From an uncultured Methanosarcinales archaeon (GTDB lineage: Archaea > Nanobdellota > Nanobdellia > Woesearchaeales > GW2011-AR9), in the NCBI GenBank assembly GCA_964510085.1, contig CAZEAB010000006.1:1-52844 (forward strand): a stretch of DNA of 52,844 bases, in the 5' to 3' direction. Below, piece after piece: positions 4,799 to 33,203 of this stretch (positions are counted from its first letter, which is position 1; each line of letters begins with the position of its first letter). The notes under the pieces are model-generated. The model saw only the letters and a list, made by a program, of their open reading frames with translations, did not search any database and was not told the origin of the DNA. The position numbers and the translations under genes are program-made.

Positions 4799-6298
4799 AT
4801 GGGCAGAGCAGTTGAAGGAAATCTTCTAACAATGCAAGAATTGGAAGCGAACAGGCTTCTTATACTTACAAAATATAAAAAGTACTTACAACATCAACTT
4901 TCTAAACTAGCAGATTATACCAATAAACTTGAATATCCACATATTGAAGATATTGGATTTGAATGCGAAGGGTGGTTTATTAATGATAAATTACTTCCAA
5001 ACCCTGTATATGAACAAGTGGTTAAATTAGTTCCAGATATTGGAAGGGAATTACTTTCATGCCAATGGGAAGTTCGAAATGAAAAAGACAATCTTATCAA
5101 ATTACAAGACCCATTACAACAAACAAATGAATGTGTTAAGGGAGTTTTCGCACCAATACAAGATGCTGCACAGAAATGCAATACAAAATTACTGATAATT
5201 GGTGGACATCCATTCTTTACTGCAGATCTTGCAAATACCATGATTACTAATTCTAAACGCCACCAAAAATTAATAGAATACATTGATTCATATGACACGA
5301 ATACTATTAACATCCCATTCGTAAATGGAGATGAAACTCGTCAAGGAATGATTTACGAGGGATATACGACCTCAATTCAAATTACAATTCGTGTATCCCC
5401 TATTTTTGCATCTTTATACCATGATGCATATTACTTAATAGCTCCTATTTTACTTGCAATGACAGCATATTCTCCAATAATTGAAGGGAAAGAAACACAT
5501 TCAGATAGTATGAGGGTACAAATAGTTGGAGATTCCTGTTACGGTTTTTCTGAAGAAGATAAAGCCGTTGGAATGCCAAGTAGATGGGGTCCTTTCCCTC
5601 CAATTTCTCAACCAGATACTGTTCCAAGTAAGTGGGCAAACCAAGATTTGTATAACTTATTAAGAAGCAGTAAAGTTCCAAATGGCGTTTCATTACATTT
5701 TGCAGAAGTTGCGGGTAAAGAAAAAGGACATTTACTTGTTACAGACACAGACTTAGAAATAGATCCTTTAGAGGGGTTTCCTTCTCCAATAATGTGGCCT
5801 TACGTAAAAATTCAACCATTTGGAATGAATGAGGGTGGTATTTTAATTGAACTTCGATTTATTGAAATGGTAAGAAAACAAGAAGAAATTTCATTACTTC
5901 TTCACTTCCTTGGAACTATGCTTGAAGTTGTTACTCATGATTTACATTTACAAAAGTTATCTCCATTACAATTAATTCACTTTAATGAAAACGAGAAAAC
6001 TTGTTCTTTACAAAATGCGTTATCATCAAACAAAGCAATCAATTGGCCACATAACGGTGAAGTAATTAAGCGGCCTGTAAAAGATATTCTTCGAGAACTT
6101 CTTGATAAAATGATTCCCCATTTCCATAAGAATGGACGAACTCCAGAAGAGATAGAAGAAATTTGTAATGTATTTGTTAACAGGGTAGGTCTTCGTATTA
6201 AAGGAGATTCTATTGAAGAATGTAATCCAACTGAAACAGCTGCTCAAGAAATGCGACGTAAAGGACCAACTCAAATGATAGAAGAATATTTATTTTAA
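4799..6298 (+). CDS. Divergent glutamate-cysteine ligase / carboxylate-amine ligase (GCS2-like)
   Basis: IGFECEGW, ELLSCQWE, GGHP, SIQITI, AMTAYSP and IELRFIE match the GCS2/YbdK motif order. Confidence 0.7.
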   Translation: MGRAVEGNLLTMQELEANRLLILTKYKKYLQHQLSKLADYTNKLEYPHIEDIGFECEGWFINDKLLPNPVYEQVVKLVPDIGRELLSCQWEVRNEKDNLIKLQDPLQQTNECVKGVFAPIQDAAQKCNTKLLIIGGHPFFTADLANTMITNSKRHQKLIEYIDSYDTNTINIPFVNGDETRQGMIYEGYTTSIQITIRVSPIFASLYHDAYYLIAPILLAMTAYSPIIEGKETHSDSMRVQIVGDSCYGFSEEDKAVGMPSRWGPFPPISQPDTVPSKWANQDLYNLLRSSKVPNGVSLHFAEVAGKEKGHLLVTDTDLEIDPLEGFPSPIMWPYVKIQPFGMNEGGILIELRFIEMVRKQEEISLLLHFLGTMLEVVTHDLHLQKLSPLQLIHFNENEKTCSLQNALSSNKAINWPHNGEVIKRPVKDILRELLDKMIPHFHKNGRTPEEIEEICNVFVNRVGLRIKGDSIEECNPTETAAQEMRRKGPTQMIEEYLF

Positions 6299-6303
6299 GA
6301 GAT

Positions 6304-7122
6304 TTACCTACAAAAATTTGCATTACTTTGTCCGTAACAAATGTTTTTAATTTCTGGACCAGTATATAATCTGTTGTGGATAGTTAAGTCGTCTAGTTTT
6401 CCACCAAAGTATCTATCACTATCTCCATCAGGACCATCCTTTCCGGCTTTTCCTAGGAATAATGTGTCCCATTTATCCTTGTTAATCTTATGTTCAATGG
6501 TTTCTCTACCAACTGAAATTCCATCAATAAATAGTTGCATGTATCCCCCATCTCTATTATCTAAAACTAAAGCCGCATGGTGCCACCCTGCTCCAGAGAA
6601 AGGCGTTGAAATTAATTTACTGTTTCGTGCATCTCCTAAATATGCTGTAAGAACTCCCCTTTCATATTTTTGGCCCTTAATGTGGTTACCCATTGAAACA
6701 TGAAATTCTTGTTCTGGTCCCCATCCATCTCCAGCAAATTGTCTATGTTTTTTCTCATTCATATCCCCTTGCCACACCATGTGTGCTCTCTTTCTATTTG
6801 TTAAATCAGTAGATTTAAACCAAAACATAATGGTAGACATATCCATTTCTTGTAAATGTAAACTAGATGTCTGGACATAATTTGTTTGTCCATTAAAATG
6901 CCACGCTTTAGTCCCTTTATATGTTCGTCTAGAATGGGTACCAACTTCATACAAAACACCTTTATGGTTTGTTGATGCATCCATTTCCATATCTAACTCA
7001 AATACAGTATCTGAAATAATAGTAGTTACAGCTCCTTGGATAGAAGTCCATCCATTTGCTACTGCAATAACAAAAACAAGCCCAATAACCGCAGCAGTAA
7101 TTATTTTTCGTTCATCCATCAT
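6304..7122 (-). CDS. Secreted or membrane-anchored LamG (ConA-like lectin) domain protein
   Basis: N-terminal hydrophobic helix; TIMFWFK, WHHAALV, LFIDG, FGGKLDDLTIHNRLY. Confidence 0.85.
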   Translation of the reverse strand: MMDERKIITAAVIGLVFVIAVANGWTSIQGAVTTIISDTVFELDMEMDASTNHKGVLYEVGTHSRRTYKGTKAWHFNGQTNYVQTSSLHLQEMDMSTIMFWFKSTDLTNRKRAHMVWQGDMNEKKHRQFAGDGWGPEQEFHVSMGNHIKGQKYERGVLTAYLGDARNSKLISTPFSGAGWHHAALVLDNRDGGYMQLFIDGISVGRETIEHKINKDKWDTLFLGKAGKDGPDGDSDRYFGGKLDDLTIHNRLYTGPEIKNICYGQSNANFCR

Positions 7123-7172
7123 TAAAGAGAATAATCTTTTGGTATATAAAGATTTACCTCTTCACAATTATT

Positions 7173-7239
7173 GGGAGCAGCACCCTGACGTAGTCAAGGC
7201 GGGCACTTGGAGAGTGCGAATCCGCCGTACCCTGCTCCT
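7173..7239. ncRNA. Candidate structured non-coding motif, copy A
   Basis: GC-rich intergenic multi-stem: GGGAGCAG/CTGCTCCT, TGAC/GTCA, GGCGG/CCGCC, GCACT/AGTGC; covaries with 24367-24436. Confidence 0.65.
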
Positions 7240-7251
7240 AATTTGGATAAT

Positions 7252-7788
7252 TCAACCAAACATAATCTCTTTTTTCTTCTTTTCTAAGAATTGATATACT
7301 GTTTTATGCATGCTTCCTTGTAATAACATTGCAACGGCTTGACGTGCTAGAGACACCTGTCCTGATTCTCCAATAATACCAACAGTTTTTCCATATACAG
7401 AAACATGGCAATCAGTTAAACGCTCAATTTCTTCTCGAGACTTACCACCTTTTCCAATAACTCTTCCTTTAAGTCGTTGTAAAGTATTTTTACTTTTTCC
7501 AGAAATATCTTTCATATCAATTAATTCAAGAGCATAATCTGACTTTAACAGCAACAACGCAATTTTTGGGTTAAAACCACGTGCAATTGCCTTAACAATT
7601 TCTTTAGTGGTATATAAATCAAGACCGTCATCACCAGTAATAGTAACGTCTCCCTCTTTTGATATATCTAAAGAACTTTTTGTAGCCAGTTCTATTTCTT
7701 TTTTGGTGTTTCCATTAGTTCCAATTAAGACAGCTACCCGTTCTTCAGGTATTTTTAGTTCATATGAAAATTCTTCTTCATTCATCAT
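7252..7788 (-). CDS. KH-domain pre-rRNA processing protein (Pno1/Dim2 family)
   Basis: Two KH GxxG loops (LIGTNG, VIGKGG); downstream of RIO1. Confidence 0.93.
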   Translation of the reverse strand: MMNEEEFSYELKIPEERVAVLIGTNGNTKKEIELATKSSLDISKEGDVTITGDDGLDLYTTKEIVKAIARGFNPKIALLLLKSDYALELIDMKDISGKSKNTLQRLKGRVIGKGGKSREEIERLTDCHVSVYGKTVGIIGESGQVSLARQAVAMLLQGSMHKTVYQFLEKKKKEIMFG

Positions 7789-7791
7789 TAA

Positions 7792-8499
7792 CTAATTTCC
7801 TCTTATCTTTTTTAATACTTCTTCTTTAGTTTGTGAAATTCCATGTTTTTTAAAGTACTGCAAGACGTTTTTTACATCTCTTTCAAGTAACTCTTCTGAG
7901 TTAGGAGTACGAACCAACGTTGCCTGTGAGAAGTCAATTAAGACTGGCTTTTCATTATAATTTAAGATATTAAATGAACTTAAATCACCATGAATTAACC
8001 CAATTTCATACATTTTTTTAATTTCTTTAATAACCTCCTTAAAGAATTTCTCTACATTTGTTGGCGCTGCATCTTTTAATGGGGGTGCTGGTTCTTCATC
8101 TCCAATAAATTCCTCTACAATGATGTGATTTCTCCATGAAATTGGTTTTGGGATGGCAATCTTACCTTTTTCTGATTTTAATAAATTTTTATACTCTCGT
8201 TGAGCCCATGCCAGTATAATCTGTCTTCTATGTTTTCTTAGAAAAATATAGCGAGGATCTTTTCTAATATAATCATACATCTTTGCAAATTCGGCATTTT
8301 GCATTCGATAAATCTTTACAATTACCTTTTTATTCCCTTTTTTTGCAATAAATACATTACTTTCCTTTCCAATAGACAAAGGGCTTACTAACTCATCAAA
8401 TATCTTCCTACTTTGAAGTTCAAATAGGGTCCTGTTGGTAAATTCATCAAAGACTCCCTTAACGGTTTTAAACCGTTCTTGATACGTTAATGTAACCAT
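7792..8499 (-). CDS. rio1: RIO1 serine kinase
   Basis: SIGKESNVF, VKIYR, IHGDLSSFNIL, IDFSQA. Confidence 0.94.
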   Translation of the reverse strand: MVTLTYQERFKTVKGVFDEFTNRTLFELQSRKIFDELVSPLSIGKESNVFIAKKGNKKVIVKIYRMQNAEFAKMYDYIRKDPRYIFLRKHRRQIILAWAQREYKNLLKSEKGKIAIPKPISWRNHIIVEEFIGDEEPAPPLKDAAPTNVEKFFKEVIKEIKKMYEIGLIHGDLSSFNILNYNEKPVLIDFSQATLVRTPNSEELLERDVKNVLQYFKKHGISQTKEEVLKKIRGN

Positions 8500-8631
8500 A
8501 TTTGACTAAAATAGCTTGGTGTTTATAATGATTTTCACCATAAAATACTACTTTTGAGTGAACACAAAAACAAAACATTTAAATACTAGCACCACAATAT
8601 AGTAACAACACACCTCAAAACCACCTCTTTT

Positions 8632-8663
8632 CCCTGATAAGCCTTTGGTTTATCGGGGTTTTT
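8632..8663 (+). terminator. GC-clamped hairpin followed by T-tract
   Basis: CCCTGATAAGCC-TTT-GGTTTATCGGGG then TTTTT. Confidence 0.5.
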
Positions 8664-8735
8664 CTATTTAATTTATCAAGAATTTAAGACTAAAAAACCG
8701 TAACATTTATAAACTACCAATTCTCCAAAATATAT

Positions 8736-8807
8736 GCCCGACACGAGAGTACCTTAGGGAGTGTACGGATAATCCAAGCAATGAACTTGGGGGTTAGTGG
8801 CACGGGC
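8736..8807 (+). ncRNA. Candidate structured RNA or leader upstream of dnaG
   Basis: TTTATAAA at 8707-8714; GC-rich GCCCG...CGGGC closing stem with internal CCAAG-CAATGAA-CTTGG hairpin. Confidence 0.45.
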
Positions 8808-9007
8808 TTCATAATCAATAAGACAAACAACGAACTCTTATGACACGGAGTTATTCACAAAATATAGATTCACAATTCACATAGTACAGAGGGTGGAAAT
8901 AAATTCTATATTTCGTGGAACAACAAGAAAAAGACATTTACCAATCACACGTATCACATATTGACACATAGTAGATAGTAGGTAGCTTTTTCTAGGAGGA
9001 AATAAGA

Positions 9008-10279
9008 ATGGCAAAAATAAGCCCAGTAGCGGCAAAATATATTGTTCAATCAGAAATTCAAATTGAAGGAATCGTTGATCGACCAGACGTAATTGGTGCG
9101 GTTTTCGGACAAACAGAAGGTCTATTAGGAAACGAACTAGAACTTCGTGAATTACAAAGAAGTGGACGAATAGGACGAATTGAAGTAAACATTAACACCA
9201 GTGGTGGAAAAACATCTGGAGAGATTATAATCCCTAGTTCACTTGATAAAACTGAAACAGTTATAGTGGCGGCAGCTCTTGAGATTATTCAACGAATTGG
9301 TCCATGTAACGCAAAGGTTAAAGTAAAAAAAATTGAAGATGTTCGTACAAGTAAGCGACAATTTGTAATTCAAAGAGCGAAAGAACTTCTTAAATTTCTT
9401 ACTGAAACAACTCTTCCAGATTCTCAAGAGATTTCTGATGAAGTAGCACAATCAGTTCGAATGATGGAAGTAGTAGAATTTGGACGAGAAAGATTAGCTG
9501 CAGGACCCGCAATTGAAGATAGCGAAGAAATAGTTATCGTTGAGGGAAGAGCAGATGTCTTAAACTTACTTAAACATGGATTTAAGAACGCAATAGCAAT
9601 GAACGGAACTTCATGTCCGGCGACAATTAAAGAACTATCTCGAAGAAAAACAACTACAGTATTTGTAGATGGAGATCGAGGAGGTAATTTAATCATAAGA
9701 GAATTGCTAAGTGTTGCAGATTTAGATTCTGTATGTAAAGCACCAGATGGAAAGGAAGTTGAAGAACTTACAAAGAAAGAGATTCACAAAGCATTACGTG
9801 GGAAAATTACAGCAGAACAAGCAAAGTTAGATCTTGGTGTTGATAGTGAAGGAAGAGTGAAAGAAGTTCCTCAAAATAGTCGATCTCGTACTCAAAGACC
9901 ATCACGTACACAAAGACCTCTACCACCAAAAAGAGCACAAAGTTTCCAAAGAACTCCACGACCTCAAGCAAAGAGCAGAGAGTTATCTGCAGATGAGAAG
10001 AAAATTCTGAAGAAAACAATGGAAGACCTTTTCGGAACTCGAGGAGCTTGTATCTTTGACCAAAAACTTACAATTCTTGGAAAAGTTCCATTAAGTGAGC
10101 TAGAATCTACCATTAAAAGTTTGAATGGCGGAATTTACGCAGTAGCATTAGATGGAGACATATCACCAGAATTATCTCAGTTAGCAGAGAAATTAAGCAT
10201 ATCCCACATAGTTGGAACAGGATCAAAAGTTAAAATCCCTGTTAAAGTGAATGTCTTAACTGATGAAAGTTTAAGTTAA
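9008..10279 (+). CDS. dnaG: Archaeal DnaG (primase-like, exosome-associated)
   Basis: DVIGAVFGQTEGLLG, VEGRADV, TOPRIM DGDRGG; AGGAGG RBS. Confidence 0.96.
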   Translation: MAKISPVAAKYIVQSEIQIEGIVDRPDVIGAVFGQTEGLLGNELELRELQRSGRIGRIEVNINTSGGKTSGEIIIPSSLDKTETVIVAAALEIIQRIGPCNAKVKVKKIEDVRTSKRQFVIQRAKELLKFLTETTLPDSQEISDEVAQSVRMMEVVEFGRERLAAGPAIEDSEEIVIVEGRADVLNLLKHGFKNAIAMNGTSCPATIKELSRRKTTTVFVDGDRGGNLIIRELLSVADLDSVCKAPDGKEVEELTKKEIHKALRGKITAEQAKLDLGVDSEGRVKEVPQNSRSRTQRPSRTQRPLPPKRAQSFQRTPRPQAKSRELSADEKKILKKTMEDLFGTRGACIFDQKLTILGKVPLSELESTIKSLNGGIYAVALDGDISPELSQLAEKLSISHIVGTGSKVKIPVKVNVLTDESLS

Positions 10280-10367
10280 ATTTTTTATTTTTTATTCTTC
10301 TTATTTTTGAATATTGCTTCCGAGAGATAACCACAACATTTTTATCATCCTTATCTTTCATAAACCC

Positions 10368-11705
10368 ATGACCTTCGATGTTATCATAGGACGTTCAAAA
10401 CAAGACGTAGCTAAATTTGGAAAAAGAGGAACGATTTTCTTAGGAAAACAATACGTCCAAATGGGTCAAACTACTTCATTATCAAACCCAGTATATATGG
10501 ATGTTGCTGGAGCACATGTTGTATTTATAGTTGGTAAACGTGGATCAGGAAAATCATACACAATGGGCTCTATTGCAGAAGGTCTTGCAGATCTTCCAGA
10601 AGAGATTAAACAAAACTTGTCAATAATTCTTCTAGATACAATGGGTATTTACTGGACTATGAAATATCCAAATTACCAAGATGCTGAAATAACTAAAAAA
10701 TGGGGATTTGAGCCAAAAGGATTAGATGTCAAAATATATACTCCTACAGGATTTTATTACAAATACAAAGAAGAAGGGATTCCCACAGATTTTCCATTCT
10801 CATTACGGCCGATTGATGTAGACCCATTAGATTGGACTAACGCATTTCAAATGAATGCGAATTCTGCAGAGGGAGTTTTAATAACTAAAGTTGTTCAAGA
10901 ACTCAAGATAAAAGAAAAATCTTATTCGATGGATGAATTGATTGAACTCGTAAAAAAAGATAAAGAATCAGACACAGTTACAGTAAATGTTGTTGTGAAT
11001 GAATTCAAAAAAGCAAAAGGGTGGAAAATCTTTTCAAAAGAAGGAACTCCATTAAAAGATCTCGTAGCAGGAGGTCAAGTAACAGTACTTGACGTTTCTC
11101 CATATGCTACAATGGCATCTGGTTGGGAGATAAAAGCTCTTGTAGTTGGACTTATTTCTCGTACATTATTCAACCAACGTCTTCTTGCACGAAAAACAGA
11201 AGAATTCAAAACAGTAGATACTTCCATGCACTACTTTTCACATGAAAAAGACACTAAGATGAAAGAACCGCTTGTGTGGCTTGCTATTGACGAAGCTCAC
11301 GAACTTCTTCCAAAAGAAGGAAAAACAGCAGCATCAGATGCTTTAATAACAATTCTTAGAGAAGGACGTCAACCCGGAATTTCATTAATCCTTGCATCTC
11401 AACAGCCGGGAAAGATTCATACGGATGTAATGACACAGTCAGATACAGTACTTGCACATAGATTAACTGCACGAATGGATGTAGAAGCTCTTCAGCAGTT
11501 AACACAAAGTTATATGCAAGAAGGTTTAGAACAAGCAATAGACCACTTACCTCGATTAAAGGGTTCTGCAGTAATATTTGACGATGCTAACGAGCGTATC
11601 TTCCCAATACAAATGCGTCCACGATTTACATGGCATGGTGGTTCTTCTCCTACTGCAATTAAAGAAAAGAAAGAAGATTATGATAAAATGTTGAAAGAGA
11701 TTTAG
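10368..11705 (+). CDS. HerA/FtsK-like ATPase (DUF87)
   Basis: Walker A GKRGSGKS, Walker B LAIDEAH, REGRQPG, ASQQP; ATG at 10368 preferred over TTG at 10314. Confidence 0.88.
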
Positions 11706-12841
11706 TCTAAGAAGATACTTAAATCACTAAATGAAGCAAATTCTGTATTTCTTCCAACTCCTGCTTTAAATTTCAATTTTCGTAACGCTTTAAATTCTAA
11801 TTGTCTAATTCTTTCACGTGTTAAGTTAAATCTCTGCCCCACTTCTTCTAATGTAAGCGGATCTTGTCCATCAAACCCAAAACGTAAACGCAATATTACT
11901 TCTTCTCTTGGTTCTAACGCAGCAAGTAATCTTTTTACCCTTTTTTCAAGTTGAGAATGTGCAACTTTACTTTCTTGTCCTCTATTTATATGTACGTGAC
12001 CATTGTAACTTGCATTATCTCCAGTAATAAAATCTTGAAGTGAATCTCCTGGTTCACCATCCTTTCCTTTAATTGGTGCATCGAGAGATCGCGGATTTTT
12101 TGATGCAATAAATAATCTCTCAAGAGAGCTTATCGCATCTGAAATTCTAACATGTAATCTTTGAGCTTTTGCATTCCCATTAGGTTTCCAAGTAGAATAA
12201 AAATCATTTACATTTTGTACTGTTGGTTCTTCATTAATTACCGTAGAAGCAAGTTTTCTTAATTCAACATTATCTAATGCAAGAGAGATAGCAATTTCTT
12301 GATTACTTGGTCTTCTTCCTAACGAACTTCGTATTCTTTGAGATGCATGATAAATATGGTTAAATCTTTCTGAAATATGTACTGGCAAACGAATGGTTCT
12401 TGAATAATCGGCTATTGCTCTTGTAATTGATTGTCGAATCCACCAGGAACCATACGTTGAAAATTTGTGCCCCTTTTCCCATTCAAATTTTTCAACAGCT
12501 TTTTGCAACCCTGTATTTCCCTCCTGAATTAAATCAAGAAAACTTAAACCTCGATTATTATATCTTTTTGCTATACTTACAACTAATTTAAGATTTTTTT
12601 CAAAGAATTCTCCAGTAGCAGTTTGATAGATTTCTTGACCTCTTGTCCAAATACCTGCAAGATGTAGTATTTCTTTACAATAGGAGGGTAATTTTGTATT
12701 TGAACCTCTAACATTAGTTTGTTCAATGTACTGTTTTCCCTTTTGAATAGCTTGATCAATAACTTCTTCAACAGTTCTACTTCTTAATTCTAAAGAAAAA
12801 GGGATTGCACTTAGTTTATGATTTTGATAATAACTGCTCAA
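11702..12841 (-). CDS. Bacterial-type sigma70 (RpoD-like) regions 2-4; C-terminal part of a split gene
   Basis: [52 protein letters not shown] (region 2), SLDAPI (region 3), [24 protein letters not shown] (region 4). Confidence 0.92.
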
Positions 12842-12870
12842 TAATCTTCGTAATTCAGTTCTCTTATCTC

Positions 12871-13725
12871 TTACAGGCCTGCAAATTTATGTGCTAATAC
12901 AGATTTCTCAATTATTCTTCCAGTTTTTTTAGTTCCCCTATTATCACATAAAACCTTAACTCTTTCTAAATATCTCTCTGATTCTTCTTCTATTGTAGCT
13001 CTTTGTCCATCCCATATATCTTTTATTTGTTGGTATCGTTCATCTTGTTTATTGGATTTTATAGGATAATTTCGTAATAATTCAATAAGTCTGTCAAGCG
13101 AATCATATAATTCTCCTTGAAGGCCATGTACTAAACCTAAAACTAATATTCTATCTTCTGCTTCTTGAATCAAAGCTCTTCCATAATCTCTTTTTTGTCC
13201 AACTAACTGTTCTGTTTCTCTGTTTAATAAAGGAATTTTTCCAATAGACTGAAGATAAAATGCTACAGAATCAGTTATTGGAATTGTTGAAACACCGGGT
13301 ATAGGTTTAGGTGAAGAAGAGGCATAATTCCTTTCCCTCTTCATTTTTTCTTGTGTAACTCTTGCTTCAAGTCCTGAAATATAATTAATATAATTAGACA
13401 AATTTACTGGAGAATCTTTCATAACAAATGGATTAACTTTATTTGGTTCAACTTCATATTCACCAATTCCCACAATCTCACAAACACCACCGGCTTCAAT
13501 ATGGGTTTGTAAGTAAATTGTTTGATTACTTGGATCAAAATCAGCAGGAGCGTTTCTAACAACGCCAGAATATAATAACCTACCTTGGTCTTGTAATTTT
13601 AATAATACTCCTTTTCTTTTCCTTGTATAGGTTAACTGTAACTTTCTAGAAGAATCTAAAATATTTCCTCTACTATTTCGCAAAGGAATTGGAATAAGGA
13701 TATTTGTATCTAATAATTCTTCCAT
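12871..13725 (-). CDS. N-terminal part of the split sigma70: unknown domain plus region 1.2
   Basis: [23 protein letters not shown] is region 1.2; frame is offset by 1 nt from the downstream ORF. Confidence 0.8.
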
Positions 13726-13770
13726 ATACTATTTTTACTAAGTTGCTTTAAAAAGATTCTGTAAAGATTA

Positions 13771-14664
13771 TCACATCTTATCTAAACGTCGTATCCGTTC
13801 ATTAATATCTGGATGAGTCATCCATAGGTTCTTAAAAAACATTTTTCGCTTCTTTCTGAAAGGAGTTGAGATAAACAGATGTGCAGTTGCTTTATTTGCA
13901 TGATCTACTAGTGGGTCTGGATCTTCCTTGATTTTTCGTAACGCATCCGCTAAACCTTTTGGATATCTTGTTAATTGTGCTCCAGATGCATCAGCAAGAA
14001 ATTCTCTCTTTCTACTAATAGCAAGCTTAATTGCTTCTCCAATAAATGGACTTAGAATAGCCAAAACTAACCCCACAACAATTAATACAATCGTAAGTTG
14101 ATTATTCTCACTATCTCTTCTACCCCAAAGAAAGCTTCGTAAAAGAAAATCAGAAAGTAAGATAGTTAATCCAACCATAACAGATGCAAGCATCATAACT
14201 CTTATGTCATAATTTTTTATATGACTCATTTCGTGAGCAATAACTCCCTCTAATTCTAACTTGTTTAACTTCTCTAATAAACCAGTTGTAACGGTAATTG
14301 ATGAATGTTCTGGATCTCTTCCAGTTGCAAATGCATTTAATGCACTATCATGAATAACATATACTTTAGGTGGTTTAGGTAATCCTGCTGCAATTGTTAA
14401 TCCCTCTACTGTGTTAATCAAATGAGTATACGTCGGCTTTTTGGCTTCTTTTGCTCGAGTCATTGTAAGAATGGCATTTGCACCACCATAATAACTAAAC
14501 AAAAAGTAAATTACACCAACAATTAACGCAAGAACTAACCCAGTATATTGATTTCCATAAAATGAACCAATAAGTAATCCTAACACTACAACAAAAGAAA
14601 AAAAGAAGAAGATTAGGAGATAGGTCTTCCTCTTGTTACTGGAAACCTCTTTGTAAAATGTCAT
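13771..14664 (-). CDS. htpX: HtpX-like M48 membrane metalloprotease
   Basis: NAFATG, HEMSH zinc motif, SRKREFLAD, THP. Confidence 0.93.
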   Translation of the reverse strand: MTFYKEVSSNKRKTYLLIFFFFSFVVVLGLLIGSFYGNQYTGLVLALIVGVIYFLFSYYGGANAILTMTRAKEAKKPTYTHLINTVEGLTIAAGLPKPPKVYVIHDSALNAFATGRDPEHSSITVTTGLLEKLNKLELEGVIAHEMSHIKNYDIRVMMLASVMVGLTILLSDFLLRSFLWGRRDSENNQLTIVLIVVGLVLAILSPFIGEAIKLAISRKREFLADASGAQLTRYPKGLADALRKIKEDPDPLVDHANKATAHLFISTPFRKKRKMFFKNLWMTHPDINERIRRLDKM

Positions 14665-15209
14665 TAAAACTCAACATCAACGTTTTTCTTTTCCTTTCCC
14701 TCTGCTTTGAAAAAATCTTCTTGATGAAATCCAAACATTTTTGCAAAAACATTTTTTGGGAAAACTTGAATTGCTTCATTGAAGTTCATAACACTATCAT
14801 TATAAAACTGTCTAGCGTACGCAATTTTGCTTTCTGTTCCCGACAATTCTTCTTGCAAGTGTATAAAGTTTTGGTTTGCCTTCAAATCAGGATAATTCTC
14901 CGCAACGGCAAAAATACTCTTAAGTGCTTCAGTAATTTGGTTAGATGCCTTTGCTCTACTTCCAACTGAACCTTTCATTAAAGAAGTTCTTGCTTCAGTA
15001 ACTTCTTTCAAAACACCTTTTTCGTGTTTCATATATCCCTTAACTGTTTTCACTAAGTTTGGAATTAAATCATATCGTCTCTTCAATTGAACATCAATTT
15101 GAGAGAACGCATTCTTCACTCGTACTCGTAATCTAATCAAGCTGTTGTAAATATATATTAAGAATACTACCACAACCGCAATAACAATCCATATCCATGT
15201 TGCAACCAT
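14664..15209 (-). CDS. lemA: LemA family protein
   Basis: [34 protein letters not shown]; coupled to htpX. Confidence 0.95.
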
Positions 15210-15377
15210 TGTAAACCTCCAATGTAGTATTAAAAACAGATTTCATTTATAATTATTCCCCCCATAAAACGCAATATATCAAAAAGTAAAGACTTTTTGG
15301 GAAGTCCCGAAAATAGATTTTTTCGGAACTTATATAAACCAAAATAACATTCCTAAAACTATAGAGGTGATAGTTTT

Positions 15378-16298
15378 ATGGTATTAGAACACATTTTTCC
15401 AGAGGACTGGTTGGAAAAGAAAGGTAGATACGCATTCTTATTAGGAGTAATATATTCATTTGTTGGTATTGGATTAGCATGGATTTTATTTAGAAACGAT
15501 CCAGCATTAGTTGCAGTAGCATTTACATCATTATTACTTTTACCAGAATTGTATAAAATATTTTCAATAGAAGAAAGACGAGAAAGTATGGAAACAGATT
15601 TTTCCATCAAAACATTATGGAGGGACGATATAGACATTATTCGAATTTACTTTTTTCTGTTTCTAGGTATAATGTTTTCTTATTCCGCTATGACTCTTAC
15701 GATGGATAGTCTTCAAACAAACTCTCTCTTTCGTGAACAGTTAGAAATAAGATTTGGTTCAGACCTTCCTGTATCTGCAGGAGAAGGAGGGCAAGGACTT
15801 GATTACAGTAACATCGTTGATTTTCCAGGAACATTTAGTATGGATTTGTTCTATGGGCTGTTAAGCAATAACTTTTTAGTGTTGCTGGCCTGTTTCATCA
15901 TGGCGTTGTTAACAGGAGATGGAGCGGTATTCTTAATTTCATGGAACGCATCGGTTTGGGGAACAATTTTTGGAATTACTGCAAAGGGAGCAGCGACATT
16001 TACTGGCGGAAGTACAATAGTATTATTCCTGCTGGTACTTGCAATAGTATTCCCACACATGATGATAGAAGCGCTGTCATATTTCCTCGCCGCCATATCG
16101 GGTTCGGTGATATCTAAAGATGTAATATTAGAGAAATTCGCATCCGAACGGTTTTTTGAAGTATTTGGGTTAAATCTGTATCTGTTGTTAGTAGCATTAT
16201 TCTTTTTGTTACTTGGAGCAGTAGTAGAAACCTGGGTACTTGACAACGTAACCATCTATAATGAAATAATTAAACAAAGCTTTGCTGCGTTTAGTTAG
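15378..16298 (+). CDS. Polytopic membrane protein, SpoIIM/DUF95-like
   Basis: Multiple TM helices, NNFLV, FPHMMIE, AVVE; GAGGTGA RBS. Confidence 0.75.
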   Translation: MVLEHIFPEDWLEKKGRYAFLLGVIYSFVGIGLAWILFRNDPALVAVAFTSLLLLPELYKIFSIEERRESMETDFSIKTLWRDDIDIIRIYFFLFLGIMFSYSAMTLTMDSLQTNSLFREQLEIRFGSDLPVSAGEGGQGLDYSNIVDFPGTFSMDLFYGLLSNNFLVLLACFIMALLTGDGAVFLISWNASVWGTIFGITAKGAATFTGGSTIVLFLLVLAIVFPHMMIEALSYFLAAISGSVISKDVILEKFASERFFEVFGLNLYLLLVALFFLLLGAVVETWVLDNVTIYNEIIKQSFAAFS

Positions 16299-16368: not shown

Positions 16369-17058
16369 ATGAAAACAGTAGGTATTATTGGAGGATTAGG
16401 ACCAGAAACAACAGCAGAGTTTTACTTAGATCTTGTTTTCTCATGCCAAAAAAAAGATAAGAGTAATAGGCCACCAATCTTAATATCAAGTGTACCTATT
16501 CCTTATGCAATTGAAGAAGAAGCTATTTCAAAAAACACAGGCATTGAACGTTTTGAACCATTTCTCACAGCGGAAGCAAGAAGATTAGAAAAAAGTGGCG
16601 CAGACTTCTTAGTAATGCCTTGCAACTCATTACATGTGTTTATTAATCAAATTAGAGATTCAGTAAATATTCCCGTTTTAAGTATTGTTGAAGAGACAGT
16701 AAATTTTTTACTTAATGAAAAAATGCAGAAGGTAGGCATTGTATCTACTTCTGCTACTATTCAGAATAGATTATATGAGGACGAATTTCAGAAAAGGGAT
16801 ATTGTTTTCCAATCACCAGACGATTTCCAGCAAGCTAAAATGGGGAAAATGATCCATAATTTAGTAATTGGTCAACAAAATAATAAGGACAGAGAAGATT
16901 TAATTGAGATAATCAATGATTTGGGAGATAAGGAAGTTGATTGTGTGATCCTTGCATGCACAGACTTACAATTATTAATCCCAAAACATCCAAATGTAAA
17001 AATATTTGATACAATGAAAATATTTGTGAATGCAACTGTTGAAAAAATTCTACAATAA
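16369..17058 (+). CDS. Aspartate/glutamate racemase family protein
   Basis: GIIGGLGP, MPCNSLH, ILACTDL (both catalytic Cys). Confidence 0.92.
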   Translation: MKTVGIIGGLGPETTAEFYLDLVFSCQKKDKSNRPPILISSVPIPYAIEEEAISKNTGIERFEPFLTAEARRLEKSGADFLVMPCNSLHVFINQIRDSVNIPVLSIVEETVNFLLNEKMQKVGIVSTSATIQNRLYEDEFQKRDIVFQSPDDFQQAKMGKMIHNLVIGQQNNKDREDLIEIINDLGDKEVDCVILACTDLQLLIPKHPNVKIFDTMKIFVNATVEKILQ

Positions 17059-17060
17059 AA

Positions 17061-17879
17061 TTACTTCCCATTCGGTTTACACACACCATAAAAATCGCAT
17101 TGCCCAGTTCTCCATTTACATAACGGTGTAACGTTTTGTGGATAATCAACTTGATTTGTTGTAATTCCAGTATGTGCGTGTATTAATTCAATCTCACGTC
17201 TTGCAAGCTCTAACAAATCTTCATCAACATTAATCATCTTTAGTTTATGTCGTAAAAAGAAAATTCCTACTTTAGATGGAGTTACTCCATGTGTTTCATA
17301 ATATAAAAGTGCATAAATTCCTAACTGTAATCTGATACTGTCTTTAATATCAAATCGGGCGTTTGTCTTATAATCTATAATATGTACTTCATCTTCAATT
17401 TTTTGAATGGCATCAATAAATCCTCTTACATTTTGTTTTTCAGATTTATATTCAAGTTCACGTAACGGCGCTATTTTTGTAAATGTATCTTCTATAGATA
17501 AATTCTCCTCAGTTTTCATCTTAGTAAAATCTTTAATAAAATGATTCACCCAATTAATTAACATTAACATAGTTTCTTCAAAATAGAATCGTTCTTGATC
17601 TTTACTTAATTGTAAGTCATCTAATCTTTTTTTGTAGTGTTGCCATTGAAAGAAACACAATTTTTGAATTGCTGCTTTAAATTTCATTTCATAATTTTCA
17701 TCGGTAAAACTAGAGATATCAATGGTATAGAAATCTTCTAACGCAGAGTGGGCAATATTACCTCTCACTTGATGAATATTTGAGAGTGTAGGTATCTTCT
17801 CAATATATTGGTAATAGTATTTTCTCTTACACTGTTTGAATGTGTTTATAGAAGATGGAGATTCTCGTCTGTTTGCCAT
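17061..17879 (-). CDS. PD-(D/E)XK RecB/AddB-like nuclease with probable Fe-S cysteines
   Basis: SPSSINTFKQC, GNIAHSALE, GFID, IIDYKT, QLGIY, C-terminal C..C..C; ATG at 17879 lies downstream of the TATA. Confidence 0.88.
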   Translation of the reverse strand: MANRRESPSSINTFKQCKRKYYYQYIEKIPTLSNIHQVRGNIAHSALEDFYTIDISSFTDENYEMKFKAAIQKLCFFQWQHYKKRLDDLQLSKDQERFYFEETMLMLINWVNHFIKDFTKMKTEENLSIEDTFTKIAPLRELEYKSEKQNVRGFIDAIQKIEDEVHIIDYKTNARFDIKDSIRLQLGIYALLYYETHGVTPSKVGIFFLRHKLKMINVDEDLLELARREIELIHAHTGITTNQVDYPQNVTPLCKWRTGQCDFYGVCKPNGK

Positions 17880-17921
17880 TACCAGTTTGGGAATGAACTT
17901 GTTTAAATGTCTTTCCTGTAC

Positions 17922-17938
17922 TTGACCAGTGGGTTGTG
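17922..17938 (-). repeat. Degenerate copy of the 24-bp element (CACAACCCACTGGTCAA)
   Basis: 15/17 identity to the core CACTACCCACTGGACAA; upstream of TTTAAACA (17907-17900). Confidence 0.55.
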
Positions 17939-17994
17939 CTACATACAGACGTAAGCACAAACTTTTATAAAAGAACTAACCAATTACATCTTAA

Positions 17995-18327
17995 ATGGCT
18001 AAACCGAAGAAACATCAACATAATCCACAAGATCAAGTTATACGGGTACGTATACCTCGAGGAAACGAACTTCTGGGGATTGTTCAACAAAGATTGGGCG
18101 GAAGCCGAATGCGAGTTCTCTGTTTAGATGGAAAAGAAAGAATTTGTCGAATTCCAGGAAGATTACGAAGAGGGTTATGGGTTCGAGAAAACGATGTTGT
18201 TATTATTACTCCTTGGGAACTTGGTGGAGATACAAAAGGAGATGTCATTTACAAATATCGTGGACGAGCTGAAGTTGATTTCTTACGTAGAAAAGGATAT
18301 CTTAAAACACTAGAAGACGAGTTTTAG
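17995..18327 (+). CDS. eif1a: Translation initiation factor aIF-1A
   Basis: [43 protein letters not shown]. Confidence 0.96.
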
Positions 18328-18329
18328 GA

Positions 18330-18545
18330 TTAATCTCCTGCCCAAATGTAACAACCACGTGATTCTCCGCTTAAAACTGCATCTGCTGCACTTGCAAATT
18401 TATCATAACTTGTTCCATGGCTCTGTGCCTCTCTTTTCTGACGTCTAAACATTTTTTCCATATATCCATCAACATCAGCTGGACCAATATCTTTAGAATT
18501 ACGCACCATTATGCCAAGTAAACTGTCTTTAGGTCTTTCTATCAT
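18330..18545 (-). CDS. Hypothetical protein
   Basis: 71-aa ORF in an intergenic gap with TATA-like element upstream. Confidence 0.5.
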   Translation of the reverse strand: MIERPKDSLLGIMVRNSKDIGPADVDGYMEKMFRRQKREAQSHGTSYDKFASAADAVLSGESRGCYIWAGD

Positions 18546-18658
18546 AATTTTTTAAGATATTTCTATTATTTAAACATTTCTCAGATAATTCTTTACTACT
18601 CCATTATATCCTTACAAACACAGAAATCCTTAAATACCGTTTTCCTTACTAATTACAT

Positions 18659-19207
18659 ATGAAAAAATTGAAACTCTTATTATACAGTGTTATTTTTGCA
18701 TTTTTATACCTTTCAATAATCCAAATCTTCATCGATAGTTTAGGCGCATCATTCTATCTTGAATTACTAGGTCTCCTATTCTTAATGGGGCTAACCTTTG
18801 TAGGATACATTGGATATACTGAATCCTGGGGAGAGAAATTCTTCTTCTTTACATTTCTATTTTATATTGGCAATTTAGCGGTTTTATGGTATTCAGCAGG
18901 TTCATTATACATAAGTCTTCTTTTCGTAGCATTACTTGGCTTTGTAATGTCAATTCCTCATAATACTAAAGTACAGGTTAATGAAGAACCAAAAATTGAA
19001 ACATACCCTGAACCATATAGTGAAGTATTTGATGTTCCAGCAGTAAAACATTCACCTGGTAAGTACGTTGCAAGTAAAAAAGGCAAGTATTACCATGAAC
19101 CTAAAAGTGAATGGGCTAAAAAGATTAAAGAAAACAATCAAGTTTGGTTCCAGAGTAAAGAAGATGCATGGGAAAAAGGATACAAAGCACATGCTGATGT
19201 AGAATAA
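18659..19207 (+). CDS. Membrane protein with C-terminal Ada-metal-binding-like domain lacking cysteines
   Basis: About 4 TM helices, then YVASKKGKYYH..WAKKI...WFQSKEDAWEKGY. Confidence 0.65.
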   Translation: MKKLKLLLYSVIFAFLYLSIIQIFIDSLGASFYLELLGLLFLMGLTFVGYIGYTESWGEKFFFFTFLFYIGNLAVLWYSAGSLYISLLFVALLGFVMSIPHNTKVQVNEEPKIETYPEPYSEVFDVPAVKHSPGKYVASKKGKYYHEPKSEWAKKIKENNQVWFQSKEDAWEKGYKAHADVE

Positions 19208-19209
19208 AT

Positions 19210-19653
19210 TTATTTTTCTTTCCAATACAAAATTACAATTAAAATTACACTAATACTAATAGCTATATCCGCAATATTAAAAGCAGGCCACCATCCTAAA
19301 TCTATAAAGTCGATAACAAATCCTCGAAAGAATCTATCTAGCATGTTTCCTATAACTCCACCAAGAAATATCCCCCATAATATCTGCCCTTTTCTATCTG
19401 TAGGCAAATCTTTGTAGTAATATAATACCCCTCCAGCAACAAGAAGTGAGAGAAAACCAAGAAGTAATGTTCTTCCTTGCAAAATACCAAACCCTGCTCC
19501 AGTATTTGTGAGATAATGAATTTTTAGCCATGAATACTCTGCAACGAATCTAGAACTCTCTATAGCCCACTTTAACAATTGATCAAAAAGAATAACAATA
19601 ATTGAAGCCCACAAAAATTCTTTCTTAAAAATAATCCTTTTCATAATCACCAC
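19210..19653 (-). CDS. lspA: Lipoprotein signal peptidase II
   Basis: DQLLK, NTGAGFG, GNMLDR, VIDF, FNIAD (both catalytic Asp). Confidence 0.93.
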   Translation of the reverse strand: MVIMKRIIFKKEFLWASIIVILFDQLLKWAIESSRFVAEYSWLKIHYLTNTGAGFGILQGRTLLLGFLSLLVAGGVLYYYKDLPTDRKGQILWGIFLGGVIGNMLDRFFRGFVIDFIDLGWWPAFNIADIAISISVILIVILYWKEK

Positions 19654-20054
19654 AATCTCTTTCTATTATCTTGTGTGTTACCTTTCTCTAAATTCGCAAG
19701 TCGTTGGTCTAACGATTGTAATAACGCTTTAATTGTATCAAGTTTACTGTTCATTAATTCCATATCTCTTTTATTACCTAATTCTTGTGTAGATTGTGGT
19801 GCTAATGAAGGTGCAACAGACTCTGGTTGGGATGCAAAAGGGTCACTTCTTCTATCTAACTCCTCAAATGGAGATGTTTCACCAGCTGGAGGCGTAGTTG
19901 GCTGTTGTTCCATACTAGGAAAATCTTTTGCCATTTCCTTAGAAGCAAGAGCATCAAAGTCAAATTCATCTTCTTTTTTCCAAAATTTAAGTTTGCTGAA
20001 CATTCCCATATAAAGAAGTAATATTACAGCGGTTTTAAATATTTCGTTAACCAC
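19647..20054 (-). CDS. Hypothetical protein with C-terminal coiled coil
   Basis: ELMNSKLDTIKALLQSLDQRLANLE; real start probably an internal ATG near 20009. Confidence 0.7.
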   Translation of the reverse strand: MVNEIFKTAVILLLYMGMFSKLKFWKKEDEFDFDALASKEMAKDFPSMEQQPTTPPAGETSPFEELDRRSDPFASQPESVAPSLAPQSTQELGNKRDMELMNSKLDTIKALLQSLDQRLANLEKGNTQDNRKRLW

Positions 20055-20088
20055 AACTTTAATAAAGAAAATTGTACTCTATGCAGAT

Positions 20089-20325
20089 ATGGCAAAAACA
20101 AAAAAGAAAGAATCAAAGGACGAACAAGTTGGTTTCCATAAAGGTTCCCTTGCAACATTAAGTAAAGAAAGGGAAGAGTTAATGCGAATTCTACAAATTG
20201 TAGAACAACTAATGCAGATGCACATTGCTGAACTTAAGAATTTGGGAGTAGATTTAGTAAAAGAAGCTAAAAGCGCAACTAAAAAACTTAAGGGAAACAA
20301 ACCAATAGAAGATGTGCTTAAGTAA
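20089..20325 (+). CDS. Small hypothetical protein
   Basis: 78-aa ORF, divergent promoter, EQVGFHKGSLATLSKEREEL. Confidence 0.75.
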   Translation: MAKTKKKESKDEQVGFHKGSLATLSKEREELMRILQIVEQLMQMHIAELKNLGVDLVKEAKSATKKLKGNKPIEDVLK

Positions 20326-20342
20326 ATAAAAAATAAAAAAAT

Positions 20343-21977
20343 TTATTTTTTCTTAATTAACATTGCTGCAAGTAAAAACATTATTACTACAATGATTATT
20401 ACAATACCGCCAATTAAGAGTGCAACTTCTGCAAAACTATCTTCTCCTACTTCCTGAACAACTGGTTGTGTTTCTACAAATGTTGGGAAGTTAATTTTCT
20501 CAACTAATACAGAACCACTAGTTGAACTAGGATTTTTTGGAACGAAGTTGTTTACAGAGATTGTAGATGAGCTTGGTGTAACGCTTGTTGAAGCAGTTCC
20601 TTTGATAGATTTCTCAATATCATCTTCTAACTCCTCAGCATCTTCTTCAAGGTTTTCAATCTTACTAAGCAACTTTTTCTGATCTTTGATAGAGGTATTC
20701 TTACCAACTTTATCATCTAGATTTTTGATCTTCTTAGCTAAATCTTCAACATTATCATCAAGATCTTTAAGCTTGTCTTCGTACTTTTTCTCATCCTTAC
20801 TATCCTTTTGAGTTCGAGCTTTTTCTACTTTCTTTTTGTAAAAGAAGTAGTCTTTTTCAATATCATCAAACTCATTATCCAAATCTGAGAATTCAATCCA
20901 TTCATCTTTAACCACTGGAGTTGGTGTTGGAGTACTTGAACAATCTGTTCCTACAGTTTGTGCAATTGCTTTCTTAGCATCAGCTTCAAGTGTTGCTAAT
21001 TCACTAATTAGCTTGTTTGCATCTGCTTCTAAATATCCATTCTTCCATTCAGTTGCAGTTGATCTAACAAGGACCATAGTTTCCATAGCATCGTTAATAT
21101 CATTACGAATTCCTGTTAATGCAATTTTTGTAGTATCTGTACTTTTCTTTGCACAAAGTAACGTGTTATGTTCTTTTGAAACTTTTGCAAGATCAGATTT
21201 AATCAAAGGAATTCCATTAGGACCAGCGCTGTACACAGCAAAGTATGCGTATCCATACTCTACTACTTTTCCTGGTGATTTACTAATTGTTCCTAAATTC
21301 TTTTGAAGTTCATCATAGTCATTTGCAAAATCTTGTTGAACAAGTTCATTTTTCTTGTTGTTATCTTGCATTTTCTTTTCAGAAGCTTTAACTTTATTTA
21401 CAAGTGAACCTAATTCATTCATTTTTGATCCAACAGTATTTACATCGCCTTTCTTTGCAATCAAATCTAAGATCTCTGCTTGTAAACCATGTAGTTCATC
21501 AAGTTTTATTTCTGCTTCAGTATATACAAGTCGGGCTTCTTCATGTACATCAATCATTGTTAACGCATCTCCCGCTTTCTTGAATAATCCTTCAGTAGAA
21601 GATAATTTTCCAACAAAAGTATTTACTTGGTTAAGAACATAATCTTTTTCTGATCCATCTCCTGATTGAAAATTTCCTTGAGATGCTTCACTAAGAAGTT
21701 CTGTTCTAATTGTATCTGTTTTACTTTGAATTCCACTAAGTTTAGTCTTAAGTGAATTTAATGATGTTAAAGCAGTAGTAGCATCTTCAGCAGTTGAAAA
21801 TTCTATTACAGAATAAACATCCGTATTGTATTGGCCCTGAACTTCTTCAAACTGGTGGTTTAAATTATCAAGTTCTTGTTGATAATCTCCCCCGTCTTTC
21901 GCCAAAGCAATCGGCGCAAAAGTTCCTAGAGCAAACAATAGCAATACTATAATCGCAATTATTTTGTTTAATTTCAT
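20343..21977 (-). CDS. Surface coiled-coil protein with signal peptide and C-terminal TM anchor
   Basis: Signal peptide, helical/heptad regions, Ser/Thr linker, TM followed by KKK; GAGGT RBS. Confidence 0.8.
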   Translation of the reverse strand: MKLNKIIAIIVLLLFALGTFAPIALAKDGGDYQQELDNLNHQFEEVQGQYNTDVYSVIEFSTAEDATTALTSLNSLKTKLSGIQSKTDTIRTELLSEASQGNFQSGDGSEKDYVLNQVNTFVGKLSSTEGLFKKAGDALTMIDVHEEARLVYTEAEIKLDELHGLQAEILDLIAKKGDVNTVGSKMNELGSLVNKVKASEKKMQDNNKKNELVQQDFANDYDELQKNLGTISKSPGKVVEYGYAYFAVYSAGPNGIPLIKSDLAKVSKEHNTLLCAKKSTDTTKIALTGIRNDINDAMETMVLVRSTATEWKNGYLEADANKLISELATLEADAKKAIAQTVGTDCSSTPTPTPVVKDEWIEFSDLDNEFDDIEKDYFFYKKKVEKARTQKDSKDEKKYEDKLKDLDDNVEDLAKKIKNLDDKVGKNTSIKDQKKLLSKIENLEEDAEELEDDIEKSIKGTASTSVTPSSSTISVNNFVPKNPSSTSGSVLVEKINFPTFVETQPVVQEVGEDSFAEVALLIGGIVIIIVVIMFLLAAMLIKKK

Positions 21978-26368: not shown

Positions 26369-26674
26369 ATGCTTACAAAAGAGATTATAATTAAGAAAAT
26401 TGAAGAGAATAAATCTACAATTCGTTCATTTGGTGTAAAAAAATTAGCTCTTTTTGGCTCTTACGCACGAGATGAAGCTACTGAAAAGAGCGACATTGAC
26501 TTTTTAGTTGAGTTTGAGCAAGGAAGAGGGTTATTCAAAGATTTTGTACATTTGCTTCAATTCTTAAGAGATGATTTATTTGTAAAGGATGTTGATATTG
26601 TTAAACCAAATTTGATACATGAAGGGCTTAAGGACTCAATTCTTGGAGGATCAAAAATTGAAGCGAAGCTTTAA
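26369..26674 (+). CDS. MNT (minimal nucleotidyltransferase) antitoxin
   Basis: LFGSYAR...SDIDFLV. Confidence 0.92.
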   Translation: MLTKEIIIKKIEENKSTIRSFGVKKLALFGSYARDEATEKSDIDFLVEFEQGRGLFKDFVHLLQFLRDDLFVKDVDIVKPNLIHEGLKDSILGGSKIEAKL

Positions 26675-26990
26675 TCTTTATTTAGAAGACATTCTTGAAA
26701 GGATTTCAAGAATTCGTGAATATACTAATGGTATGACTTACATTGATTTTCAAAGAAATAAACTAGTATCCGATGGAGTTGTCCATAACTTAGAGATTAT
26801 TGGAGAGATAGCTGGCCAGTTAGACGACGAATTTAGGAGAAAACATTCCGAAGTTCCATGGCAAGAAATGAAAGATTTTAGAAACGTCATTATTCATAAA
26901 TACCATAAGGTAGACTTTGAGATTGTGTGGAGTATTGTTGAAAACCTTATTGATCCATTAGAAAAAAATGTACAGAAAATATTACTATGA
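26658..26990 (+). CDS. HEPN (DUF86) RNase toxin
   Basis: [17 protein letters not shown] (Rx4HxY); TTG start at 26658 overlapping MNT. Confidence 0.9.
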
Positions 26991-33133: not shown

Positions 33134-33203
33134 TTTTTTCATCACTTGAAAATAAATAACTGTTGGAAAAGTTTATAAAATAACTTCTGTGCGACGAATT
33201 GGA

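Follow-up and report, generated by a model that had tools for sequence, protein, structure and literature searches.

A bacterial-type sigma-70 gene present as intact and frameshifted alleles in an archaeon of the order Woesearchaeales

Archaeal transcription is thought to start only through the factors TBP, TFB, and TFE. Here, we describe a gene for a bacterial-type sigma-70 factor located at positions 11702 to 13725, on the minus strand, of a 52,844-nucleotide stretch of archaeal DNA (positions 1 to 52,844 of contig CAZEAB010000006.1, assembly GCA_964510085.1; hereafter, the window). In the assembled window, this gene is frameshifted and consists of two open reading frames (ORFs) whose frames are separated by a one-base difference, and contigs from other samples show that an intact form of the same gene exists. 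The gene is almost certainly the Woesearchaeota/Nanoarchaeota version of a bacterial-type sigma-70 homologue already described in DPANN archaea. As to its role, we tentatively favor an intact protein that would serve the archaeal cell itself as a sigma-like accessory factor.

The original prediction treated positions 11702 to 13725 as a single gene and missed the one-base difference, which places the two halves of the gene in different frames. The first half, ORF-N (positions 12871 to 13725, minus strand), starts with ATG, ends with a TAA stop codon (12873 to 12871), and encodes 284 residues comprising an N-terminal domain, sigma region 1.2, and the first part of a nonconserved spacer. The second half, ORF-C (positions 11702 to 12841, minus strand), starts with TTG and encodes 379 residues that include the end of the spacer and regions 2, 3, and 4. 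Its frame is open upstream only back to position 12886, and a 16-nucleotide overlap (positions 12871 to 12886, minus strand) is the only place where both frames are open and marks the zone of the frame change. In G001, a genome of the same genus, the orthologue is a single syntenic ORF of 670 residues, to which ORF-N aligns over residues 5 to 281 with 40% identity and ORF-C over residues 296 to 641 with 47% identity. The break therefore sits within the spacer that separates region 1.2 from region 2, in 15 residues of low conservation. Both ORFs are otherwise open and collinear with the orthologue, and exactly one lesion is present. The intact gene would encode one protein of about 674 residues, in which an orphan beta-rich N-terminal domain is followed by region 1.2, the spacer, and regions 2, 3, and 4, with a helical insertion specific to the genus inside region 3. 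Programmed -1 frameshifting at 12871 to 12886 was considered and rejected, by inspection only, given that no X XXY YYZ slippery heptamer was seen and that a stop codon lies just upstream in the -1 frame.

Logan contigs from four runs other than the source run (X3, X5, X6, and X7) were aligned to positions 11500 to 14000 of the window. One contig each in X3 and X5 (positions 12518 to 12894, depth 3.4), two runs with nearly identical contig sets that may represent one data set filed twice, contains an extra base after plus-strand position 12877. On the gene strand, this base extends GG to GGG, precisely the change needed to join both frames. The short form found in the window was recovered from X3 (record 4) and X5 (record 10) at a depth of about 5, as well as from X6 (record 15), where a 1,351-base contig (positions 12193 to 13543) bridges the site at a depth of 4.5; all contig depths at 12877 are below 6, and the X7 contigs leave the site unbridged. 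Over the stretches that they cover, contigs with either form show no further difference from the window. In addition, an HMMER search of 1.84 billion representative proteins retrieved P0121, a public gene call of 408 residues that matches ORF-N exactly over residues 1 to 283 and then crosses the junction without a stop, continuing in the ORF-C frame up to region 2.2. We conclude that intact (about 674 residues) and frameshifted alleles coexist in the population and that the frameshift is recent. A profile scan of the genome that contains the window (G000) returned one region 2 match, one true region 4 match, a second region 4 match that corresponds to TFB, and no match to Sigma70_r4_2, so that the sigma gene is the only one in this genome. 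Because the broken allele is the only sigma gene of the genome, the gene is probably dispensable, at least temporarily.

Regions 1.2, 2, 3, and 4 of an RpoD-like factor had been read from the sequence, and Pfam retrieved all four on the minus strand. Region 1.2 (positions 13207 to 13272; ORF-N residues 152 to 173) matches PF00140 (Sigma70_r1_2) with 24 bits for a cut-off of 22. Region 2 (12398 to 12607), which holds the core-binding helix and the -10 recognition and melting residues, matches PF04542 (Sigma70_r2) with 70.3 bits in ORF-C and 73.9 bits in the genome scan, compared to a gathering threshold of 24. Region 3.0 (12254 to 12370) matches PF04539 (Sigma70_r3) with 34.1 bits (cut-off 25.3) over profile positions 1 to 39 of 78 only, the remainder being displaced by an insertion of about 46 residues. 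Region 4 (11771 to 11929), the -35 helix-turn-helix, matches PF04545 (Sigma70_r4) with 61.2 bits (cut-off 24.1). Both the RERIRQ helix and the region 2.3 WW pair are present as announced. The insertions that had been noticed were recovered as well. The first, inside region 3 (12107 to 12244), was located by alignments, follows E. coli position 500, is common only to the G001 orthologue, and is predicted to be helical with a predicted local distance difference test (pLDDT) score of about 94 to 96. The second is a longer 3.2 loop with a G-F/H motif, which the protein shares with other long archaeal sigma forms. No match to region 1.1 (PF03979) was obtained in ORF-N at an E value of at most 0.01, and the Pfam scan detected no Sigma70_ner domain.

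Among NCBIfam models, the best match was RpoD (PRK05658), with 288.4 bits against an equivalog cut-off of 555, a score obtained from ORF-C alone, which lowers it. MzaA came next (261.5 bits, cut-off 800), followed by other RpoD/SigA models, all below their cut-offs, and RpoS, while models for RpoH, SigB/F/G, and FliA scored far lower. The protein is therefore RpoD-like without reaching any equivalog cut-off. By sequence, it matches only primary and RpoS-type sigmas in the PDB. For ORF-C, an AlphaFold2 model built from 47 sequences reached a pLDDT of 85.5, and a Foldseek search of the PDB with this model listed 49 matches with a probability of 1.00, all of them bacterial primary sigma (sigma A or sigma-70) chains from RNA polymerase complexes or models.

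The conservation extends to individual residues. We aligned the protein with that encoded by E. coli K-12 rpoD and considered 34 chosen positions that we take to act in core binding, DNA melting, and recognition of the -10, extended -10, and -35 elements. Of these, 31 are identical in the window, and the three differences are M413Q, Y425H, and R599K. The residues aligned to the melting aromatics Y430, W433, and W434 are kept, as are those aligned to L402, D403, Q406, E407, and N409 of the core-binding helix and to H455 and E458 of region 3.0; in region 4, R584, E585, R586, R588, and Q589 all have identical counterparts. Region 2 shares 70% identity with that of E. coli RpoD and 72% with that of G001, and the corresponding values for region 4 are 53% and 60%. 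Between the window and G001, identity amounts to 29 to 40% in the N-terminal domain, the spacer, regions 3.0 to 3.2, and the insertion (31 to 40% for the N-terminal domain and spacer); for scale, the N-terminal 360 residues of the RNA polymerase A' subunit are 88% identical between these congeners. The sigma core is therefore nearly fixed and the remainder is fast evolving, and the identities indicate strong, long-lasting constraint on regions 2 and 4.

The N-terminal part of about 150 residues had been called unrelated, and ORF-N residues 1 to 150 indeed gave no match in Pfam, NCBIfam, or PHROG. The orphan domain itself spans approximately residues 1 to 105 (positions 13411 to 13725, minus strand) and is predicted to be beta rich: an AlphaFold2 model of ORF-N from six sequences, poor overall with a pLDDT of 49, contains six strands between residues 9 and 84, followed by helices. 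The exhaustive HMMER search returned three proteins at an E value of at most 0.001, all from this genus-level group, namely, P0121, a fragment of 157 residues (75% identity), and the G001 protein. A search of the ESM Atlas with residues 1 to 130 gave no usable hit, and a search of 301 genomes from the order with ORF-N retrieved only ORF-N itself and one weak region 1.2 match. Three other long archaeal sigmas (G016, G023, and G024; 700 to 728 residues) possess N-terminal extensions of similar size with no significant similarity to that of ORF-N. Together, these searches support an N-terminal domain whose detectable relatives are confined to the genus.

The TATA-like sequence that had been pointed out upstream of the gene corresponds to TTTTTAAA (positions 13747 to 13754, minus strand), which starts at -29 from the ATG of ORF-N. 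We scanned the 805 ORFs of at least 150 residues in G000 and found a sharp peak of TATA-like hexamers between -30 and -27 relative to the ATG (115, 101, 54, and 34 hits), compared to about 0 to 15 hits at nearly all other positions. Most genes of this genome thus appear to be leaderless. A TATA box at -29 falls within the peak of the genome and therefore has the standard geometry of a leaderless archaeal promoter, so that the archaeal machinery should transcribe the sigma gene. By eye, neither a TATA-like hexamer at -30 from the start of ORF-C nor a Shine-Dalgarno-like run before its TTG codon was seen; independent expression of ORF-C was rejected on these grounds. Because ORF-C lacks a TATA box of its own, the broken allele probably makes only the 284-residue N-terminal piece, with no sigma core.

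The host of the gene is an archaeon, and the contig is not chimeric. In agreement with the claim that the gene is embedded among archaeal genes, the window also encodes Topo VI subunits A and B, a RIO kinase, a KH/Dim2-like protein, aIF1A, aIF5B, Trm1, an archaeal-type DnaG, TrmB, and an RNA 3'-phosphate cyclase. The closest named relatives of Topo VI-B, at 76 to 83% identity, are assigned to Candidatus Woesearchaeota, Nanoarchaeota, Nanoarchaeia, or an unclassified "archaeon." Gene order around the sigma gene is the same in G001, with a HerA-like ATPase convergent on the sigma gene followed by HtpX, and contigs from other samples span the sigma gene into the HtpX flank. A chimeric assembly, which had been named as a possible objection, is thus contradicted by archaeal neighbors, synteny within the genus, and independent contigs. 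G000 itself (1.06 Mb in 32 contigs, 96.9% complete, 0.36% contamination) encodes TFB, TBP, and, beside Rpb5_C, a single Rpb1_1 match corresponding to an 864-residue split archaeal A' subunit. The bacterial alpha C-terminal domain (RNA_pol_A_CTD) was not found in this 96.9% complete genome, which, judging from its gene content, encodes no bacterial core RNA polymerase. A provirus or defense-island context was also considered and set aside, as neither an integrase nor a capsid or terminase match of full length turned up among the nine ORFs scanned around the gene (positions 4799 to 16298); partial, low-scoring matches labeled as terminase or virion proteins were limited to the HerA-like ATPase, a LemA protein, and a lectin-like ORF.

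Among 401 high-quality genomes sampled from the phylum, 166 contain Sigma70_r2 (163 of 398 without G135, G431, and G532, which are flagged as unpublished), as do 32 of 41 genomes from the family. Using ORF-C as a query, 26 of 41 relatives gave matches, many of them at several places. One genome of the same order, G063, has three tandem sigma-70 family genes (L015; G063:C3, approximately 17464 to 20643) with open frames of 400, 371, and 229 residues. A phylogenetic analysis against bacterial RpoD and DPANN homologues was performed by an IQ-TREE quick search on 55 rows and 406 columns, with the Shimodaira-Hasegawa-like approximate likelihood ratio test (SH-aLRT) as the only support measure and many long branches; rows below 55 bits or 240 residues were left out. 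The window protein is sister to that of G001 (support 89) inside a group of long forms with G023, G024, and G016 (support 93). A branch with an SH-aLRT value of 96 separates 27 rows from archaeal genomes from all 24 bacterial rows and 4 further rows from archaeal genomes. The bacterial rows are RpoD-like only, and the named ones are 11 loci picked by chance peptide patterns rather than nearest relatives. A recent transfer, the other objection raised with the original prediction, does not agree with these results: the nearest relative is the orthologue from the same genus, at 40 to 47% identity, and the protein groups with the archaeal long forms, away from the bacterial rows. The pattern among these sequences fits an old acquisition with vertical descent and paralogue expansion rather than a recent transfer into this genome.

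Several archaeal rows showed features of their own. Two of the three G063 sigma genes group with bacterial RpoD rows. The sigma of G038 (L005; G038:C67:3553-6601, 454 residues), one of the 4 archaeal-genome rows on the bacterial side, nests by a short branch within the RpoD proteins of Patescibacteria; with contamination of about 6% in this bin, the sigma may represent contamination or a recent transfer. In G023 (L004:2441-3469) and G024 (L007:2-919), an ORF that looked coiled-coil rich by eye comes after the long-form sigma gene, on the same strand. These two ORFs were rejected as a conserved partner, since neither is significantly similar to the other, to the sigma N-terminal domains, or to G000.

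Genes of this kind have already been reported. In Castelle et al. 2021 (PMC8204110), sigma-70 genes (fam00359) are described as particularly prevalent in Woesearchaeota, mis-binning is excluded, no anti-sigma factors are found, and the mechanism is left unclear, which agrees with the original statement that DPANN sigma homologues without a known function had been reported. The window gene is likewise a bacterial-type gene in a Woesearchaeota-type genome with TBP and TFB; new at this locus are the frameshift polymorphism, the orphan N-terminal domain, the genus-specific insertion in region 3, the leaderless TATA promoter, and the residue-level conservation. No functional study of an archaeal sigma was found in the literature searched. 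Bacterial group 1 sigmas (RpoD/SigA) resemble the window protein in having regions 1.2, 2, 3.0, 3.2, and 4 and a spacer that separates region 1.2 from region 2, in the contact residues, and in the fold matches. Unlike them, the window protein remains below the RpoD equivalog cut-off, has a different N-terminal domain and the region 3 insertion, contains no detected region 1.1 or Sigma70_ner, falls outside the sampled bacterial RpoD rows, and belongs to a genome without a bacterial core. MzaA of the MZA anti-phage system, the second-best NCBIfam match and also the PADLOC match, is similar as an RpoD-like protein of about 700 residues with an unrelated N-terminal part. However, the score is far below the MzaA cut-off, the sigma core alone matches, ORF-N has no MzaA match, and no PADLOC Mza partner gene was detected among the flanking ORFs scanned. 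Sigmas encoded by phages and viruses, including the rpoS-like genes of DPANN viruses described in a 2025 paper (PMC12647753), also represent sigma family proteins encoded outside a bacterial chromosome, and the PHROG sigma family phrog_351 matches the window sigma; in contrast to them, the window gene has conserved synteny with housekeeping genes in its congener.

In the explanation that we prefer, the intact protein would be a sigma-like accessory factor for initiation or regulation within the archaeal cell, with regions 2 and 4 recognizing -10-like and -35-like DNA while docked on the archaeal RNA polymerase. An internal role is preferred because the only polymerase is archaeal, the promoter is archaeal, and the family is kept and multiplied in very small genomes. 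We put forward this explanation as a whole, mechanism included, as the best but a tentative one, and that the sigma works with the archaeal RNA polymerase is a possibility that we hold with more doubt than conviction. Several observations weigh against it. All 27 of 27 relatives have the same A' clamp coiled-coil, even some in which the sigma queries gave no match (G007 and G009), and no sigma-linked adaptation is therefore seen there. The archaeal A' residues aligned to R275, E295, and A302 of E. coli beta', which we take to be needed for sigma-70 binding, are I, L, and H, and sigma residues Q406, E407, and N409, which presumably face them, are unchanged even though the aligned clamp residues differ; unchanged sigma residues opposite a changed clamp fit better with a bacterial-type partner. 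The sigma-70 consensus TTGACA-N16-18-TATAAT is not enriched in the genome relative to six permuted motifs (0 perfect, 29 one-mismatch, and 793 two-mismatch sites, compared to 19 to 54 and 527 to 928 for the permuted motifs), in a test that is blind to a small regulon. Finally, loss of the gene is tolerated by the cell, as the frameshifted allele demonstrates. A predicted complex of the A' clamp (residues 1 to 360) with sigma regions 2 to 3.0 scored 0.00 without controls and has no weight either way.

Some of these observations would suit a protein that acts without the polymerase, its region 4 helix-turn-helix and region 2 only binding DNA to repress or activate archaeal promoters. The three differences at presumed sigma-contacting positions of the clamp helices, and the lack of variation of these helices with sigma presence, are consistent with such a regulator. 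Region 1.1 is the element that stops free sigma-70 from binding DNA, and here it is absent, with another domain in its place. The lack of anti-sigma factors reported for DPANN archaea by Castelle et al. 2021 (PMC8204110) points the same way. Nevertheless, we find this role unlikely, since the melting aromatics and the core-binding helix are all kept and region 2 is equally close to E. coli and to the congener, which a plain DNA binder should not need. The same retention of core-binding and -10, extended -10, and -35 residues, nearly complete in a cell without a bacterial core, would be expected if the archaeon made its sigma to redirect the RNA polymerase of a bacterium, either a partner or prey, in the way that sigma factors of phages redirect that of their host. 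The genome also encodes a membrane-anchored SLT lytic transglycosylase (G000:C9:12055-12789; L087:1180-1914) and an M23 peptidase with a twin-arginine-like leader (G000:C2:75751-76542; L088:1273-2064), members of peptidoglycan-directed families that, among control genomes, matched bacteria only, and these enzymes hint at contact with bacterial cell walls. Yet no signal peptide was seen by eye at the N terminus, no secretion gene adjoins the sigma gene among the neighboring ORFs scanned, and the several sigma paralogues of many relatives look more like an internal regulatory set. Moreover, we know of no protein-transfer route for such a delivery, and the DPANN hosts shown so far are, to our knowledge, archaea. 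An effector acting across domains is thus quite unlikely, and its most specific form, an RpoD mimic delivered into a bacterial partner as a weapon or tool that reprograms the RNA polymerase there, is more improbable still; if true, it would explain why the bacterial core-binding and -10/-35 residues are almost unchanged without a bacterial polymerase.

Two other explanations concern the frameshift rather than the function. The gene might be a decaying relic that is useless in this lineage, the frameshift being the first step of pseudogenization. The frameshift is present in the assembled genome and in X3, X5, and X6 contigs, it affects the only sigma gene of the genome, the downstream half has no TATA box at -30, and 9 of the 41 family genomes examined gave no Sigma70_r2 match. 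On the other hand, a single lesion interrupts halves that are otherwise open and collinear with the orthologue, the allele contigs are otherwise identical to the window over the covered stretches, an intact allele persists, and regions 2 and 4 have been under strong long-term constraint. The objection that this might be a degrading copy is therefore half right, in that the assembled allele is frameshifted, and half wrong, in that an intact allele coexists with it and regions 2 and 4 are constrained. All considered, we doubt that the gene is a relic, and its loss in this lineage is compatible with any functional reading. It is very improbable that the organism has the intact gene only and that the missing base is an error of assembly or sequencing: depths are low (3.4 to 5) and the break lies within a short G run, but the short form was assembled independently in X6, on the bridging contig, and in X3 and X5 beside the other form, and a GG/GGG run is not a typical error site.

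A bacterial-type sigma kept in about four in ten sampled genomes of the phylum, with DNA- and core-contact residues nearly unchanged, bears on the mixing of initiation systems and on how tiny symbionts deal with their partners. As the existence of such genes is already in print and the reference assembly carries a broken copy, this locus is a well-characterized example rather than a discovery. It offers a natural pair of broken and intact alleles, a defined archaeal promoter, and conserved residues to mutate.

Other features were observed in the neighborhood and elsewhere in the window. The HerA-like ATPase that neighbors the sigma gene is matched by generic HerA models and by mad8 models. Its G001 counterpart (L003:3-1400; positions 10314 to 11705 in the window) contains extra sequence immediately ahead of the site of the P-loop in the window protein; this sequence ends in an H-N-S motif and resembles an intein, and the window copy is without it. 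More bacterial-like genes are present, namely, a bacterial-type lipoprotein signal peptidase II (Peptidase_A8; positions 19210 to 19653) and an Asp/Glu racemase (16369 to 17058). A series of large ORFs on the same strand (33189 to 42767), of 627, 438, 463, 1,170, and 421 residues, probably encodes surface or adhesion proteins; the 1,170-residue ORF has He_PIG, Big_9, and cadherin-like repeats, the 421-residue ORF has a weak NPCBM_assoc match only, and the remaining three gave no Pfam match at an E value of at most 1e-5. An ORF for a HepT-like ribonuclease toxin (26619 to 26990) overlaps the start of the MsrB (SelR) gene, and no partner antitoxin ORF of at least 110 residues is listed upstream of it. 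Lastly, at the edge of the window, a LAGLIDADG/WhiA-like ORF (36 to 815) overlaps the end of a tRNA-Cys gene (7 to 80).

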